A stretch of DNA of 64,000 nucleotides from Nitrososphaerota archaeon (GCA_041641305.1 JBEPYN010000001.1:224001-288000), one strand, 5' to 3'. Shown: positions 36,220 through 43,092, counted from the first letter of the stretch. Notes: a model not told the origin generated them from the sequence alone. Numbers and translations: made by a program.

Positions 36220-36450
36220 TCACATCTCTACCAACGGCCTTCGGCAAAGCGGGCACGTCTGCCTAACCACGAGCCAGTCATCGAAACAGGCCATGTGGCC
36301 AACTGCTCCACAGTGAGGACACGAATACGTTTTCTCATTCCCCATCTCCAGCCCACATATCACGCAACTCTCCTGCTTAAGCCGTTGCTTCTGCTCCTCA
36401 AACGGGTTCCAGAACCCTGCGTTAATCTCCTTAATTACCAGCCTCAACAA
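36220..36450 (-). CDS. srfp: Small RING finger protein (E3 ligase)
   Basis: CVIC-x11-CPHC-x4-H-x2-C-x10-CPLCRR with Trp in the central helix; overlaps the E1 end. Confidence 0.9.
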   Translation of the reverse strand: MLRLVIKEINAGFWNPFEEQKQRLKQESCVICGLEMGNEKTYSCPHCGAVGHMACFDDWLVVRQTCPLCRRPLVEM

Positions 36451-37630
36451 GCCTCACCTTTACAGCAACCGGTGTTGCTCTTCTGCTTGAATGGATATAA
36501 AGTATGTCACCGTCGACTATGCCCGCTGACTCTATCTCCATATCATCGCTTAACAATTTTGCACCATGCTGTAACCTCGTGTCCGGGAACATGAGCAGGT
36601 TAGATAGCCTCTCTCTCAAATCGGCGACAGTCTCGTCTGGCGAGACGTTAACCTGCATAGGCTTATCTTCATCGTAGCCGCATACATGGCAGTTAATGTT
36701 TCTCTCCAGCTTTATCCGCGTAAGCCTTCCCTTCAGCCCGTCGAAAACCATCATCCCGTTCAACGGCCTGCCCAAAGAACCTTTATGCAGTATTCGGACG
36801 ACCTCGAAAGCAGCCAAGCCGGAGACTGTAGCCGATATGCTCTGTAAAGCAGGCATCTTGGGGTTGAGCAGTGAGCGGAGCTGTATAACCTGGTCTCGGA
36901 GACCCTTATCCATTTGGTCTAACACGGTCTGTGGAGCAAACTTAATGTCGTAAACAGTCTTGATATTGTATTTGAAGAGTGCCTCAGCCTCTGAAACTTC
37001 CAGTACTATGCCTCGTTCACTCAGCTCCTTTACGAGGTCGTTTGGGGTGCGGCGGCGTAGAGAGCATTCGGACGCCTGTATGTCGGCGGGAATAAGGGCC
37101 TCTGCGTGGCATTCGAGGCAGCTTGTAACACGAGGTATCACAGTTTGAACATTGCCATAATATCCGTCTGTTGCGACGTCAACAAGCGCAGTTCCAACAT
37201 GCACCGCCATCGAGTTTATCCATCTTCTAGTAGGCCAGTTGTCAACAGCGGAAACTATGACATCAACCTCTCCGAAGGTTTCTTCGGGGATTCTTCGAAC
37301 ATCTGTTTGTAAGCCTTTTACTTTTACGAGAGGGTTCATCATGGATATTTTTTTCTCGGCCGTAGATGCTTTTGGCTGGCCTATGTCTTGGTCGGTGTAG
37401 AGCATCTGGCGGCTGAGGTTGGAGAGCTCAACGTAGTCGTTGTCTATGAGGAGCAGCTCACCCACGCCCATAAGCGATAGGTTTTTCGCCACCTCGCATC
37501 CCAGCGCCCCCACACCCGCGATAACCACCCTCCCCGACAGGAGCCTGCTCTGGTCCCATCCCTCGAGCCTTAGCTGACGGTCGTACCTCGACAGAGCGTC
37601 AACCTCGCCCAAAACTACAAACCCTTCCAA
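36431..37630 (-). CDS. e1l: Ubiquitin-activating enzyme E1 with C-terminal Ub-fold domain
   Basis: RYDRQ, GVGALGCE, SNLSRQ, Zn pairs CLEC and CHVC, candidate catalytic Cys in SECS, C-terminal beta-grasp-like ETVADL...GAKLL...GI.DGD. Confidence 0.93.
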   Translation of the reverse strand: MEGFVVLGEVDALSRYDRQLRLEGWDQSRLLSGRVVIAGVGALGCEVAKNLSLMGVGELLLIDNDYVELSNLSRQMLYTDQDIGQPKASTAEKKISMMNPLVKVKGLQTDVRRIPEETFGEVDVIVSAVDNWPTRRWINSMAVHVGTALVDVATDGYYGNVQTVIPRVTSCLECHAEALIPADIQASECSLRRRTPNDLVKELSERGIVLEVSEAEALFKYNIKTVYDIKFAPQTVLDQMDKGLRDQVIQLRSLLNPKMPALQSISATVSGLAAFEVVRILHKGSLGRPLNGMMVFDGLKGRLTRIKLERNINCHVCGYDEDKPMQVNVSPDETVADLRERLSNLLMFPDTRLQHGAKLLSDDMEIESAGIVDGDILYIHSSRRATPVAVKVRLVEAGN

Positions 37631-38121
37631 CGCTTCTTTCCAAAAGCCTGCTCAGGCGTAGCAAATGTTTCAACAAACTGTCTAACACGGGCGTAGAATA
37701 GGTCGGGCCTGTTCTTGTACTCAAATGCTGCGACGGGGTTAAGAGGATCCTCGGGGTTGGGGTTCGTCAGAAGGTTTCTCAGCGACTCGATAACCGCCAC
37801 AATGCGGAGAGAAGGTGACCAATGGTCTTTGAAAATTGATTCACAAACCCTTGCAGGGACGCTGTCCGAGAAATTTGGGTGCCATATACGTGTGTGCCAT
37901 ATAACATCTGGCGGGAAATATGGATAGGACCTCGGAATGATTATTTCTACTCTGAAGTAGCCTCCCTCATATTCGCCTGAGCCAACTATAACGCCTTCGT
38001 AATGGGTTAGGTCGTTTTCAACAGGTGTGAAGGTGGGCTCATTCTCCTGAATCAACGCATACTCGAGAGCCAGCCGCCTGTACCACGCGTTTTCAGGCAG
38101 CTCGACGTATTGGCTCTCCAT
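37615..38121 (-). CDS. e2l: Ubiquitin-conjugating enzyme E2
   Basis: RRL..E, YEGG.F, YP..PP, WHPN, catalytic Cys (RVCES), WSP, PNPEDPLN..AA. Confidence 0.96.
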   Translation of the reverse strand: MESQYVELPENAWYRRLALEYALIQENEPTFTPVENDLTHYEGVIVGSGEYEGGYFRVEIIIPRSYPYFPPDVIWHTRIWHPNFSDSVPARVCESIFKDHWSPSLRIVAVIESLRNLLTNPNPEDPLNPVAAFEYKNRPDLFYARVRQFVETFATPEQAFGKKRWKGL

Positions 38122-38356
38122 ATCCGCCCACCGTCCTCGTTATGAGTACGAATTTGTCTCCATCGGCTACTCCGAGGCTCTCAAGTGTTTCCGTGTCTTT
38201 GAGAGCTCTTCCTTTATAGGTTAGACGTGTGGTGTCGGGTGGAAGTTTCTTCATGGCGCAAACCTTCGTCCGAACTGCTCCGACGGTGGCGTTTGGAGCA
38301 ACCTCGAGCTCTAAGGGTGAACCTCCTCCGACAGCTGGAACGATCTTAATCTTCAT
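38093..38356 (-). CDS. ub: Eukaryote-type ubiquitin precursor (87 aa; G77-G78 plus a 9-aa propeptide)
   Basis: MKIKIV...TVGAVRTKV...RLTYKGRALKD..TLESLGV.DGD...RTVGG|YGEPIRRAA; ATG at 38356. Confidence 0.95.
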   Translation of the reverse strand: MKIKIVPAVGGGSPLELEVAPNATVGAVRTKVCAMKKLPPDTTRLTYKGRALKDTETLESLGVADGDKFVLITRTVGGYGEPIRRAA

Positions 38357-38497
38357 TTCTGAACTCCTGATAACCACAGCGTATATAAGGATTAACCAGA
38401 AGTCAAACCTCGAGCCAGCTTACAAAATACCTCGGTAATATTCAATATCGTTTCTTGCAGCGTCATTTTTATTACCGTCCGAGTCATCGGTCTCCCA

Positions 38498-39106
38498 ATG
38501 CGTGTGCGTATCTACCCACTGGCCTTGGCGAAGGTTGTAAAGCACGCTGCCTCAAGCCTCAACCGAGAGGTGGCGGGCCTCCTCGTCGGCAAATCGGCTG
38601 GGAAAGTTCTGGAGATATGGGACGCGGTCACAGGTGAGCAATATGGTACCCCTGCTTACGTGCAGCTTGATGAGCTGGTCATGGCTAGGGTTGCGGAAGA
38701 CCTCTCTAAATCGGATAAAAACCTGTACATAGTCGGATGGTATCATTCTCATCCGGGGCTTGATGTTTTTCTATCGCCGACAGACATCGACACGCAGAAA
38801 AGATACCAGGCCATGTACAGCAAGGCCGTCGCGCTCGTGGTGGACCCTGTTGAGTATGCCAAGACACGTAGAATCTCTGCTCTTAAGTTCAAGGTTTTCC
38901 AGATATCGAAAGAGGGGAAGGTTGTTTCTCTTCCTGTAAGCATTGGAGTACACAGAGCTAAGCTTCTTGAAAGCACTCTCCACGCCCTGAGCACTTTTGA
39001 TTTTATACATATCTTCGGAGAGTCTTCCAGTAAGACGAGGGAGAAGCCTTCGTTGGATGAACAGGAGAGTTTGCTGGAAAAAGCTAAAAAGTTATTCGGA
39101 GTGTAG
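38498..39106 (+). CDS. rpn11: JAMM/MPN+ metalloprotease (Rpn11-like deubiquitinase / pro-Ub maturase)
   Basis: REVAGLLVG, GWYHSHPGLDVFLSPTD; divergent from ub. Confidence 0.95.
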   Translation: MRVRIYPLALAKVVKHAASSLNREVAGLLVGKSAGKVLEIWDAVTGEQYGTPAYVQLDELVMARVAEDLSKSDKNLYIVGWYHSHPGLDVFLSPTDIDTQKRYQAMYSKAVALVVDPVEYAKTRRISALKFKVFQISKEGKVVSLPVSIGVHRAKLLESTLHALSTFDFIHIFGESSSKTREKPSLDEQESLLEKAKKLFGV

Positions 39107-39137: not shown

Positions 39138-39929
39138 TTGCCGAAAAAAATCGTTCTCCGCATAAAGCCGTCGACGCAGCATCAAGAGACCTCTCCAGAC
39201 ATAGAGATGGTTACTCCTCAACCTTCACAAGAGGAACAACCTGCTAAAGAAGAGAATGTGAAACCTGTTGAGGAGCCTGTTCAACAGCCGGTTGGTGACG
39301 ACCTTGACGCGGCTCTAAAAATGTATGAGGAGCTGATGCGAGAGGTTGAACGGCTGCGCGGTCTCGACCGTAACTTCATGCTTTACTGCATCAAAATGGA
39401 GGAGCTGAGACCTCAGCTGGTGAGAAACATTTTGGGCAGACTTGCCGAGAAAAGGAACGCGTTGCTGGAGAAAAGTGAAGAGGTTTTGGAGAGGCTTAAG
39501 GCGGCGAGAGAAGCCATAGGCTCAGAGTTTGCCCAAGTAGAGGAGGAGCTGATTTGGTCCAGCATCGAGCTAAACACCATGCAGCTTGAGAAGGATACAG
39601 ACTCTGATAAGGGTGTCGGATTAAGGGAGGAGCTTGAGGCAAAGATACCTGAGCTAAGAAAAAAGCTCGCAAGCCTACGAAACAGGTTAAAGATGATTGA
39701 GGAGATGGTGAAACAGCTCTCTGACCTACCGCGCAACATAGCAGACATGACGACAAATAAGGAGGAGCCGGCCAAACTTTTCGAGGAAATCAAGAAAAAA
39801 TACATGCTATCATATGGGCAGCGCGCCGAGGCTGTTGCGAGGGCGGAGGTTGAGAAAATCGCTCAACAGGAGTCGATACCGCGGGAGTATGCTGTTATTA
39901 TTCTCTGGAAAAGCATGTCCAACCGTTAA
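39138..39929 (+). CDS. Coiled-coil protein with disordered P/E/Q-rich N-terminus
   Basis: Heptad-rich helices; 31 nt downstream of rpn11 on the same strand. Confidence 0.72.
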   Translation: MPKKIVLRIKPSTQHQETSPDIEMVTPQPSQEEQPAKEENVKPVEEPVQQPVGDDLDAALKMYEELMREVERLRGLDRNFMLYCIKMEELRPQLVRNILGRLAEKRNALLEKSEEVLERLKAAREAIGSEFAQVEEELIWSSIELNTMQLEKDTDSDKGVGLREELEAKIPELRKKLASLRNRLKMIEEMVKQLSDLPRNIADMTTNKEEPAKLFEEIKKKYMLSYGQRAEAVARAEVEKIAQQESIPREYAVIILWKSMSNR

Positions 39930-40324
39930 AGCACTGGCCTGAATTTTACGCCATAGATTATTAGCTTCGACTCGCCGTCTACACGGATTTTTCTCACGAC
40001 CGTTTCGACATCCATTCCAACTGTAAGCTCTGATGGTTCGCAGTCTGTCATCTGACCTATTACCTGCGTGCCGTCGGGCATCTCAACCCATGCTACAATG
40101 TATGGAACATTTTTCTCAAGACCTGTCTGAGGTTGATAAACTACGGTGAAATGCTTCAGTTTGCCGTGGTTGGCGAGCCTATCTCTTTCAAGTCTGCGTG
40201 AACCACATTTTCTACATATCTTCCGAGAAAACGGGTTGAAGTGGCCGCACTGTGTGCAACGGTTTCCCTCAAGCCTGTAGAGATAGGGGCGGAGACGCCA
40301 GTATGAGGATGGCCGGGTTGACAT
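39926..40324 (-). CDS. DUF35 Zn-ribbon/OB-fold protein
   Basis: CTQCG...CRKCG, QMTD, VGMDVE.V.RK, YG.KFRP. Confidence 0.92.
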   Translation of the reverse strand: MSTRPSSYWRLRPYLYRLEGNRCTQCGHFNPFSRKICRKCGSRRLERDRLANHGKLKHFTVVYQPQTGLEKNVPYIVAWVEMPDGTQVIGQMTDCEPSELTVGMDVETVVRKIRVDGESKLIIYGVKFRPVL

Positions 40325-40325
40325 G

Positions 40326-41483
40326 CTACACCCACTCCTCTACAACGGCAACTGCTGAGAAGGAGCCGAGTCCAGCCATCGAGGACACAAGACCCGCCTT
40401 AGCGCCGTCGACCTGATTTTTTCCAGCGCGTCCAGACAGTTGCAGAAAGCTTTCAACCAAGGCGTAGAGACCCGAGGCCCCTACCGGGTTCCCGCGGCCC
40501 TTCAAACCACCGAATGTGTTGACAGGCACCTCACCCGACAGCGACCACCTGCCTTTACGCGCGAGATGACATGACTCACCGGCCTCTGCCAACCCAATAG
40601 CTTCAAGAGAAAGCGGCGTCAACAAGCTGTAGCTATCATGAACTTCCACGAAGTCAAGATCAGACACCTTTCTCCCCGCCATCTCCAAAGCCCTCTGAGA
40701 AGCCAGAGATAGGCTCCTCAGCCATAGAGGGTCTTCGCGGTCAAACGGAGAGAGATAATCCGTGGCCGCACCAATGCCTGAAACCACAGCCTTGTAGCCG
40801 TCTGTTTTCTGGGCTGTTTCCAGTGACGTGATTACAACAGCGGCTGCTCCGTCCGCCGGAGCAGTTGTCTCCAGCCGCCTAATTGGTTCTGCTACGCTTG
40901 GCGAGTTTACGACTGTGTCGAGGGTGATTTTGAACTGGTATTGAGCGTGCGGCACGGTTTGAGAATGCTCATGGCTGAGGACTGAGAAGTAAGCAACATC
41001 TTCATGCTCCAGCCTGTTGCGTTTCAAATACTCTTTGTAGAGTAGAGCCGCTTCGGCCAGTTGTGTCACTCCAAGTGCAGCAACAGTTTCCGCGGGCTCC
41101 TCCGTCGTGAGCAGTGACACGTAATCCTCGGAAGTGGCCTCAGACATTTTTTCGCCGCCGACAACGAGGACAGATTTGTATAGGCCGGATGAAACAGCTG
41201 CGACGGCGGCTATTGCTGCAGCCAGGCCGGAGGCCCCGCCGGCCTCAACCCTTGAGGCGGCCACACCTCTTATCCCAAGCTCTTCCGCGAGATATGCTCC
41301 GATGTTGGACTGCTCCTGCAGAACCTGCCCAAATGTGTTTGAGACATATACCGCGTCTACTGCGGATATGCCAGCGGAATCGAGTGCTTGTACCGAGGCT
41401 TCCGCCATAAGCTCTGTCAAGCCTTTGTCCCAGTGCTCCTCAACCTTCGTCAACCCAGCGCCTACCAACGCAGCCCGCAACAC
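40326..41483 (-). CDS. Archaeal/SCP2-type thiolase homologue lacking catalytic residues
   Basis: GGEKM, DGAAA, EVHD, VN..GGLK.RG are present, but the catalytic motifs read EAGGASG, HDSY and GNP. Confidence 0.88.
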   Translation of the reverse strand: MLRAALVGAGLTKVEEHWDKGLTELMAEASVQALDSAGISAVDAVYVSNTFGQVLQEQSNIGAYLAEELGIRGVAASRVEAGGASGLAAAIAAVAAVSSGLYKSVLVVGGEKMSEATSEDYVSLLTTEEPAETVAALGVTQLAEAALLYKEYLKRNRLEHEDVAYFSVLSHEHSQTVPHAQYQFKITLDTVVNSPSVAEPIRRLETTAPADGAAAVVITSLETAQKTDGYKAVVSGIGAATDYLSPFDREDPLWLRSLSLASQRALEMAGRKVSDLDFVEVHDSYSLLTPLSLEAIGLAEAGESCHLARKGRWSLSGEVPVNTFGGLKGRGNPVGASGLYALVESFLQLSGRAGKNQVDGAKAGLVSSMAGLGSFSAVAVVEEWV

Positions 41484-41484
41484 G

Positions 41485-42531
41485 CTACACCCTTATCTTC
41501 TCCCTGAATTTGAGGTAGGTCGAGTAATCGATCGGCTTTCTGCGGCTGAGCAGTTGGCTGAAGCTCGGGCCCCTGCCGCGTTTCTCCTCCACGCCGTCGC
41601 AGACAGTTAACACGAAAGAGTCGCTTCCAGCTCCCGAGCCATAAGAGGTCATCAGTATACGCTGACCCGGCTTAGCTATGTCTAAGACCTTTGCAAGACC
41701 AATCATCGAGCAGGCGGCATAAGTGTTTCCGACCACGTCAGCCACTATGCCGGGCTTCACCTTCTCAACGGGAATGGAAAGTATCTTTGAGACCGCGAGA
41801 GGGAATTTTACGTTAGGCTGGTGGAAAACAAAGTAGTCTATGTCGGTGACGGTGAACCCGTTTTCCTCGAGCACGGTCTTGACAGCAGAAAGGGTGTGGT
41901 GGAAGTAGGCTGGTTCCCCTGTGAAGCGGGACCCATGCATCGGATACCGTTCATAGCTTCTTCTCCAGAAGTCAGGAGTGTCGGACACGTATGATGTCGA
42001 GTATTCGAATTTCGCTACACAGTCTGAGCCGTTTCGTCCTATGAGGAAGGCCGCGGCCCCGCTTGCCGCGGTGTATTCGAGGGCATCCCCAGGCCTCCCC
42101 TGAGCTGTGTCAGCTCCTATTGCAAGCCCAAACTCAATCCTCCCTGTCTCGACGAGAGCTGTAACCATCTGCATAGCCTCTGTCCCCGCTTTGCAGGCGA
42201 ACTCGAAATCAGCGGTGGTCACGTGGCGGGATACACCGAGGATTTCGGCGACCAACGTGCCAGAGGGTTTGACCGCATATGGCTTTGACTCTGTTCCCAC
42301 ATGAACCGCCTGAACCCTTGAAGGCTCCACATCAGCCCTAGCCAGAGCCATTCGAGCGGCCTCGGCGGCCATTGTTATAGTGTCTTCATCCAAACCCGCC
42401 ACTGCCTTCTCTTTGACAGGCAGGTCGGCGGAGGATTTCCCCCAGACCCTTGCTATCTCCTCACCAGCAATCCTATACCTGGGGAGATAGCAACCATAAC
42501 CATGAATAGCCGCGTCCCTTATCTTCGGCAT
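41485..42531 (-). CDS. Archaeal HMG-CoA synthase
   Basis: DED..TM, GTES.PYAVKP, EFACKAGT, FTGEPAYF.H, HQPN, GNTY, SYGSGAGSD. Confidence 0.94.
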   Translation of the reverse strand: MPKIRDAAIHGYGCYLPRYRIAGEEIARVWGKSSADLPVKEKAVAGLDEDTITMAAEAARMALARADVEPSRVQAVHVGTESKPYAVKPSGTLVAEILGVSRHVTTADFEFACKAGTEAMQMVTALVETGRIEFGLAIGADTAQGRPGDALEYTAASGAAAFLIGRNGSDCVAKFEYSTSYVSDTPDFWRRSYERYPMHGSRFTGEPAYFHHTLSAVKTVLEENGFTVTDIDYFVFHQPNVKFPLAVSKILSIPVEKVKPGIVADVVGNTYAACSMIGLAKVLDIAKPGQRILMTSYGSGAGSDSFVLTVCDGVEEKRGRGPSFSQLLSRRKPIDYSTYLKFREKIRV

Positions 42532-42642: not shown

Positions 42643-43092
42643 ATGACAATGGAACTCGATGAAAAGGATTTGAGAATTCTTCAAGAGCTTGTGGAGGATG
42701 CTGAGCAGGCGGTTTCAGCCATAGCGGCTAAGGTTAAGATGCCTCGCACAACTGTTCAGGAGAGGATTAAGCGGCTTAAGCAGCTGGGCGTGATAAAGAA
42801 GTTCACGGTTCAGCTTGATCATTCTAAGCTGGGCAAACCCGCCACAGCATTTGTCCTCGTCTCCTTCCAGCAGGGAACAACTTCGCAGAAGAAACTGGCC
42901 GAGGAAATAGCGAAGCTTCCCGAGGTCGTTGAGGCACATGTCATAACCGGTGAATGGGACATAATCGTGAAAGTAAGGTCCGAGTCTATGCAGTCCATCG
43001 GCGCTCTCGTTGTCGACAAAATCAGGAACATGCCAGGCGTCGGAAAAACTATTACATGTGTTTCGCTCGCAGCCGTCAAAGAAAGCGTCTAA
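42643..43092 (+). CDS. Lrp/AsnC transcriptional regulator
   Basis: LDEKD..IL, HTH TV..RIKRL...GVI, TGEWD RAM domain. Confidence 0.93.
   Translation: MTMELDEKDLRILQELVEDAEQAVSAIAAKVKMPRTTVQERIKRLKQLGVIKKFTVQLDHSKLGKPATAFVLVSFQQGTTSQKKLAEEIAKLPEVVEAHVITGEWDIIVKVRSESMQSIGALVVDKIRNMPGVGKTITCVSLAAVKESV

Follow-up and report, generated by a model that had tools for sequence, protein, structure and literature searches.

The thiolase/HMG-CoA synthase (HMGS)/DUF35 complex described in 2018 from Methanothermococcus thermolithotrophicus is presented as a near-universal archaeal means to pull the unfavourable condensation of acetyl-CoA by channelling (PMC12960953). It is established knowledge that all known thiolases pass through a covalent acyl-cysteine intermediate (PMC12960953), and in the archaeal complex the exchange H284A, which removes the histidine of the HDxF motif, abolishes HMG-CoA formation (PMC12960953). 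In the part of PMC12960953 that cites Vogeli 2018, HMGS is given as inactive and the thiolase (ACAT) as insoluble when each is expressed alone, and the CoA-binding site as fused at the interface between HMGS and thiolase. A tripartite organisation in which one subunit of the thiolase superfamily is dead, yet kept for assembly, is known from PhlABC, MucABC and the ACAT/HMGS-DUF35 complex of P. fluorescens (PMC6392133, PMC12960953). The dead partner there is the HMGS-like subunit, which has no E-C-H-N tetrad, whereas the ACAT-like subunit carries its cysteine (PMC12960953), in agreement with the original prediction on the locus presented here, which had named the HMGS-like subunit of PhlABC as the non-catalytic one. 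Proteins with an SCP2-thiolase fold, a DUF35 partner and no nucleophile cysteine are likewise known, namely the aldolases Ltp2-ChsH2(DUF35) and Sal-Shy as well as TbSLP, and the catalytic tyrosine of Ltp2 and Sal is the first position of a YD[HC][FY] motif (PMC12329534). An archaeal SCP2-type fold without the nucleophile is represented by the thiolase-like protein ST0096 of Sulfolobus tokodaii (PDB 4YZO), for which our literature search found no describing paper. A further parallel comes from type II polyketide synthases, whose KS-beta or chain-length factor is a paralogue of the condensing enzyme that no longer carries the active-site cysteine and is the obligatory partner of the active subunit; it differs from the present case in belonging to another branch of the thiolase superfamily, in its ACP dependence and in forming a heterodimer with its own paralogue.

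The window, a stretch of 64,000 nucleotides (C1:224001-288000), belongs to the genome of a hot-spring archaeon, 1.66 Mb in size and 99.3% complete. It carries three genes head to tail on the minus strand, and its closest database proteins bear the name Candidatus Caldarchaeum:

41485..42531, minus strand: HMGS, 348 aa, the only copy in the genome, E 9e-115 to 6esq_I, with E81, C113, H237 and N269 present
40326..41483, minus strand: cysteine-less SCP2-type thiolase-fold protein, 385 aa, GTG start, Pfam Thiolase_N and Thiolase_C_1
39926..40324, minus strand: DUF35 protein, 132 aa, ATG start, Pfam zf-ChsH2 and OB_ChsH2_C, with a Cys4 zinc ribbon and an OB fold

The spacers are 1 nt at both junctions, with the thiolase GTG starting 1 nt past the HMGS stop and the DUF35 ATG 1 nt past the thiolase stop. 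The thiolase reading frame is full length, as had been claimed, and the neighbouring HMGS is catalytically intact, again as expected from the first reading: it matches the HMGCS of M. thermolithotrophicus at the E value given above, and 9 orthologues show no variation in its four tetrad columns. All zinc-ribbon cysteines of the DUF35 protein (C23, C26, C37 and C40, in CxxC...CxxC arrangement) are present. A genome-wide search returned no HMGS other than the operon copy and the same genome encodes an HMG-CoA reductase; therefore the operon is the real entry into the mevalonate pathway. The locus thus resembles the M. thermolithotrophicus system in its three adjacent genes, its HMGS tetrad, its zinc ribbon and OB fold and, in an AF2 model, a superposable thiolase backbone, and is here known from its genes.

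On one side the operon adjoins a eukaryote-like ubiquitin system (window 36431-39106), and on the other, 111 nt ahead of the HMGS start, lies a gene of the Lrp/AsnC family whose product is a candidate for regulating the operon:

36431-37630, minus strand: ThiF E1
37615-38121, minus strand: UQ_con E2
38498-39106, plus strand: JAB/MPN (JAMM) protease
42643-43092, divergent from HMGS: Lrp/AsnC-family regulator

A ubiquitin system of this kind is already known from Caldiarchaeum.

The best solved relatives of the operon thiolase are the P. furiosus thiolase PFC_04095 (7yvy), ST0096 (4yzo) and the thiolase of the M. thermolithotrophicus complex (6esq). In the alignment to 7yvy (E 3e-80) the nucleophile motif EAACASG is changed to EAGGASG, EVHDAF to EVHDSY and RGHPVGA to RGNPVGA. 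All three changes had been called from the DNA at first reading, and they were recovered at the following sites:

41235-41237, minus strand: codon GGG of Gly83 at the position of the nucleophile cysteine, within GAG GCC GGC GGG GCC TCC GGC
40629..40640, minus strand: HDSY, residues 282-285, the HDxF motif with His282 and Asp283 retained and Phe changed to Tyr
40488..40490, minus strand: codon AAC of Asn332 at the position of the GHP histidine, from alignment and direct codon reading

In contrast to the thiolase of the M. thermolithotrophicus complex, the protein has neither the nucleophile cysteine (CxS) nor the GHx histidine, and against the NCBIfam equivalog NF053570 (AcCoTHIOL_METTL), whose curated cut-off is 600, it reaches 256 bits; therefore it cannot make and channel acetoacetyl-CoA as that complex does. 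Its best NCBIfam family, NF004720, is matched with 326 bits, also below the respective cut-off (420). The histidine of HDxF has its equivalent in His282, followed by Asp283. By gene content, fold and HMGS residues the operon belongs to the archaeal HMGS/thiolase/DUF35 module, but its thiolase fails the catalytic features, which makes it a variant and not a standard member. ST0096 shares with it the absence of the nucleophile (RVDNTSGSG aligns with VEAGGASG) and a SMAG-type C-terminal loop, and is among its fold matches (TMt 0.92-0.96); it differs in keeping the GHP histidine, at an identity of about 31%.

The three motif changes had been offered together as evidence for inactivity. The loss of the cysteine holds as such evidence, but GNP does not count for much by itself. 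In three genomes of the same order (G019, G022 and G028; loci L040, L041 and L050) the operon thiolase carries the cysteine, is the only thiolase of its genome and also reads GNP. Since these are the sole thiolases of sister genera, GNP alone is weak evidence for inactivity, and its use as proof was dropped. As judged from the sequences, it is the loss of the cysteine, and not GNP alone, that indicates inactivity, and archaeal SCP2-type thiolases seem able to function with a Cys-His(HDxF)-Asn set. Such a set resembles that of FabH and HMGS.

In public records the homologues of the operon thiolase are annotated as thiolase or acetyl-CoA acetyltransferase, and together with the intact reading frame this would suit a protein that still acts as an acetoacetyl-CoA thiolase through another nucleophile, or else a gene that is decaying or owes its Gly and Asn to errors of assembly or sequencing. 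We regard these possibilities as highly improbable. The sole cysteine of the protein is Cys305, in the ESCH context that the first reading had rightly described as an unrelated position, and its column holds Cys in 13 of 33 clade members; no conserved Cys column exists in the cysteine-less Caldarchaeales clade, in which this best column reaches only 13/33, and an alternative Cys nucleophile was ruled out on this ground. Any Cys codon is two base changes away from GGG. A survey of motifs and dN/dS among relatives had been suggested with the original prediction and was carried out on 40 genomes of the same order (Caldarchaeales). Gene order HMGS-thiolase-DUF35 is retained in 30/30 genomes with an orthologous operon thiolase (47-90% identity), and in all 30, which are independent assemblies from three families of the order, the nucleophile cysteine is absent. 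Among the best database matches, 88 of 119 cluster representatives likewise have no nucleophile cysteine. Sequencing error and pseudogene were both ruled out by the 30 assemblies, the two-base codon distance and the low dN/dS.

Regarding selection, dN/dS was calculated by the Nei-Gojobori method for ten close genome pairs. The values range from 0.03 to 0.15 for the cysteine-less operon thiolase, from 0.03 to 0.14 for HMGS with one pair at 0.29, from 0.04 to 0.17 for DUF35, and from 0.006 to 0.096 for the stand-alone canonical thiolase described below. The cysteine-less thiolase is thus under strong purifying selection, with dN/dS similar to that of HMGS, which excludes a decaying gene. Relative to HMGS, divergence is 1.3-1.6x for cysteine-less and 1.05-1.3x for cysteine-bearing thiolases, the pairs compared not being independent of each other. 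The AF2 model of the operon thiolase has a pLDDT of 95.3 and a pTM of 0.94. In the comparison with the Methanothermococcus thiolase, which had also been proposed at the outset, it superposes on the thiolase of the complex (6et9_C, 6esq_A) with TMq 0.96 and an rmsd of 1.4 A. The dN/dS values and this superposition thus describe a folded protein of thiolase shape that is under selection.

If the operon thiolase is inactive, acetoacetyl-CoA has to come from another thiolase or route, as the original prediction had pointed out, and the inventory of other thiolases that it suggested was made. Thiolase-fold genes occur at four loci of the genome, all of them next to a DUF35 gene, and only one is canonical:

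C3:5826-7010, minus strand: stand-alone canonical thiolase with EAACASG, HDCF and GHP, followed by a 182-aa DUF35 gene (the pair spanning C3:5281-7010), with no HMGS nearby

With this enzyme present, the source of acetoacetyl-CoA in the genome is not a puzzle. It scores higher than the operon thiolase both against 6esq (256 vs 163 bits) and against AcCoTHIOL_METTL (360 vs 256 bits). An orthologue was found in 30/30 genomes with a cysteine-less operon (58-94% identity), with EAAC, HDCF and GHP invariant and a DUF35 gene following in most cases. In the same order there are 9 genomes whose operon thiolase has the cysteine, and 8 of these 9 have no other thiolase. A cysteine-less operon with a canonical thiolase elsewhere on the one hand, and a cysteine-bearing operon alone on the other, is the pattern expected if the stand-alone enzyme has taken over catalysis; few independent events stand behind this co-occurrence, however, as all 30 genomes fall into a single clade. 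Further possible inputs of acetoacetyl-CoA are two 3-hydroxyacyl-CoA dehydrogenase genes and a ligase:

C1:379444-381417: acetoacetate-CoA ligase, TIGR01217, 746 bits

The 4-hydroxybutyrate carbon-fixation cycle, which would supply acetoacetyl-CoA and make channelling unneeded, was considered and ruled out for this genome, as 4-hydroxybutyryl-CoA dehydratase (PF11794) was not found in the 99.3% complete assembly.

We consider it probable, at roughly 0.7, that the operon thiolase is a pseudoenzyme subunit retained for the assembly and support of HMGS, and that acetoacetyl-CoA is provided in trans. The protein would be the catalytically inactive thiolase-fold subunit of the archaeal HMGS/thiolase/DUF35 complex, presumably co-translated with HMGS and DUF35 from the tightly packed operon and joined with them in a physical complex. 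Its retention would follow from a need of archaeal HMGS for the assembly, both for activity and for CoA binding; if HMGS depends on its partner as reported in PMC12960953, that dependence would account for why a dead enzyme is under strong selection. The thiolase half-reaction would have moved to the canonical enzyme at C3:5826-7010 with its own DUF35, and HMGS would take acetoacetyl-CoA from solution and not through an intramolecular channel. A retained scaffold with another thiolase as the source had been the first proposal for this gene, and selection, the unchanged fold in the model, the single intact HMGS and the canonical thiolase in 30/30 genomes all support it, the scaffold role itself being the part deduced from sequences and models.

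What has happened to the old active site was examined against 80 columns that are ≥88% conserved among 34 cysteine-bearing operon thiolases. In more than half of the 33 cysteine-less Caldarchaeales proteins 23 of these 80 columns are altered. The most affected columns are 59, 82, 83, 128, 141, 285, 332 and 368, and they are also lost in an independent cysteine-less clade of Chloroflexi. Kept throughout 56 diverse homologues are K112, D211-G212, R249, E280, E294, GGLK325-328, G331, P333, Q348 and Q357. The active-site columns of the operon thiolase have thus decayed, while the backbone and most non-catalytic conserved positions are kept. In the clade, His282, Asp283, Ser85 and Glu80 are largely retained, from which the pocket could still bind a ligand or have some activity.

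These residues bear on whether the old pocket performs cysteine-independent chemistry, be it decarboxylation of malonyl-CoA of the KSQ/CLF type or as in SLP, or a retro-aldol/aldol reaction with the DUF35 partner as in Ltp2 and Sal. Besides the four retained residues, such a role would be in line with the mostly Tyr state of position 285 and with the replacements favoured in both independent cysteine-less clades, namely Gly at 83, Ala at 59, Tyr at 285 and Asn at 332. Cysteine-less thiolase-fold enzymes moreover exist in Ltp2, Sal and TbSLP (PMC12329534), which are also among the fold matches. However, the catalytic tyrosine of Ltp2 and Sal occupies the first position of their motif, where the operon thiolase has His282. 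The HDxF histidine is retained in 27 of 33 clade members, and the last position of the motif is Tyr in 21 and Phe in 8, so that Tyr285 alternates with Phe. Position 332, that of the GHP histidine, alternates between H, N and Y within the genus, and site 83 reads G, A, E, T, S or D, but never C, in the 33 Caldarchaeales orthologues, which means that site 83 calls for no particular chemistry. The clade has gained no new invariant polar residue, the partner gene codes for an ordinary HMGS and not a hydratase, and the decarboxylase activity of TbSLP is itself very low (PMC12329534). The genomic setting differs as well: the DUF35 of Ltp2 and Sal is fused to a MaoC-type hydratase and found in steroid side-chain and degradation clusters, whereas here it is a free-standing protein of 132 aa beside HMGS and ubiquitin-system genes. 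New chemistry of this kind is in our view unlikely. Its Ltp2-like form, which the first reading had put forward as the alternative to a scaffold, found no support, and an Ltp2-type aldolase was ruled out by the missing Tyr signature. It is similarly doubtful that the pocket formed by His282, Asp283, Glu80 and Ser85 captures acetoacetyl-CoA or malonyl-CoA noncovalently and hands it over to HMGS, or even carries out a cysteine-independent step such as decarboxylative enolate formation. If this were true, TACK archaea and Chloroflexi would have arrived convergently at another way around the unfavourable reaction with which the archaeal mevalonate pathway begins.

Thiolases are obligate dimers, and both thiolases, each with a DUF35 partner, are present in 30/30 genomes. 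Channelling could on these grounds be kept with one live site, in a mixed dimer of the cysteine-less subunit and the canonical thiolase, or by the canonical thiolase joining the HMGS assembly; a tandem pair of thiolase-like genes elsewhere in the genome, described at the end, suggests that heteromers occur in the family. The two proteins belong, however, to different deep clades, the operon protein being HDAF-derived and the stand-alone thiolase of the HDCF type, with 34% identity between them, and the canonical gene lies on another contig with no obvious co-regulation. We therefore judge a mixed assembly to be quite improbable. The same phylogenetic distance bears on the origin of the stand-alone enzyme, which did not arise by recent duplication of the operon gene.

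The history of the cysteine was followed in a tree (IQ-TREE, LG+C20 PMSF, quick search) and in a survey of 80 HMGS-centred loci from named genomes. The window protein falls into the cysteine-less Caldarchaeales clade with 100% SH-aLRT, and this clade is nested in a TACK group that includes cysteine-bearing proteins of Thermofilum and Nitrososphaerales. Well-supported branches require at least 3 changes of the Cys state. The HMGS-adjacent thiolase is cysteine-less in Nezhaarchaeota, Bathyarchaeia, one Desulfurococcaceae MAG and 31 of 37 Chloroflexota, and cysteine-bearing in Thermococcus, Thermofilum, Methanobacterium, Hadarchaeota, DPANN lineages, Wukongarchaeum and a Nitrososphaerales MAG. 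In an Anaerolineaceae MAG (L095:4001-7900) HMGS, a cysteine-bearing thiolase and DUF35 are followed by a second thiolase without the cysteine; this operon may be an intermediate stage with live and dead copies together.

The channelling model cannot hold in the whole Caldarchaeales clade because the thiolase of the complex is without its nucleophile, and the same limit applies to Nezhaarchaeota, Bathyarchaeia, the one Desulfurococcaceae MAG and most sampled Chloroflexi operons. The annotation of the cysteine-less operon genes as acetyl-CoA acetyltransferase is accordingly wrong, and in metabolic reconstructions the first mevalonate step should be assigned to the stand-alone thiolase. With regard to PhlABC and MucABC the operon is a mirror image, the thiolase and not the HMGS-like subunit being dead, so that either half of a two-enzyme machine can turn into a structural pseudoenzyme. 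A search of the literature, which covered few subscription papers, returned none on a cysteine-less thiolase subunit in the archaeal complex, and nothing of relevance on 7YVY or on a mevalonate-pathway thiolase of C. subterraneum. Three points are new here: the contrast within one order, in which a canonical stand-alone thiolase accompanies the cysteine-less operon and no other thiolase the cysteine-bearing one, the convergence of two lineages on decay at the same columns, and the caveat on GNP. The system is suited to asking whether channelling is dispensable once a second thiolase is present.

Some observations were made at other thiolase loci. In two genomes (G033 and G035; loci L149 and L150) the stand-alone canonical thiolase lies within an open frame of 750 aa with one in-frame TGA, and no DUF35 gene was found downstream of the thiolase at these two loci; the long frame may be a gene fusion, a case of read-through or an assembly feature. 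The acetoacetate-CoA ligase listed above belongs to a cluster (C1:379444-385986, L162:1444-7986) that also comprises an acyl-CoA dehydrogenase, two tandem cysteine-less thiolase-like genes of the NCBIfam PRK06066 and PRK06065 types, a 214-aa DUF35 and a 138-aa ORF without family. This cluster may code for a heteromeric enzyme of thiolase fold whose substrates are acetoacetate-derived or branched CoA esters. A further cysteine-less thiolase-like gene, with GDHGGANG at the nucleophile site and accompanied by DUF35, is located at C1:401972-407595 (L163) and is flanked by genes for an acyl-CoA dehydrogenase, a molybdopterin oxidoreductase large subunit and a 4HBT thioesterase.
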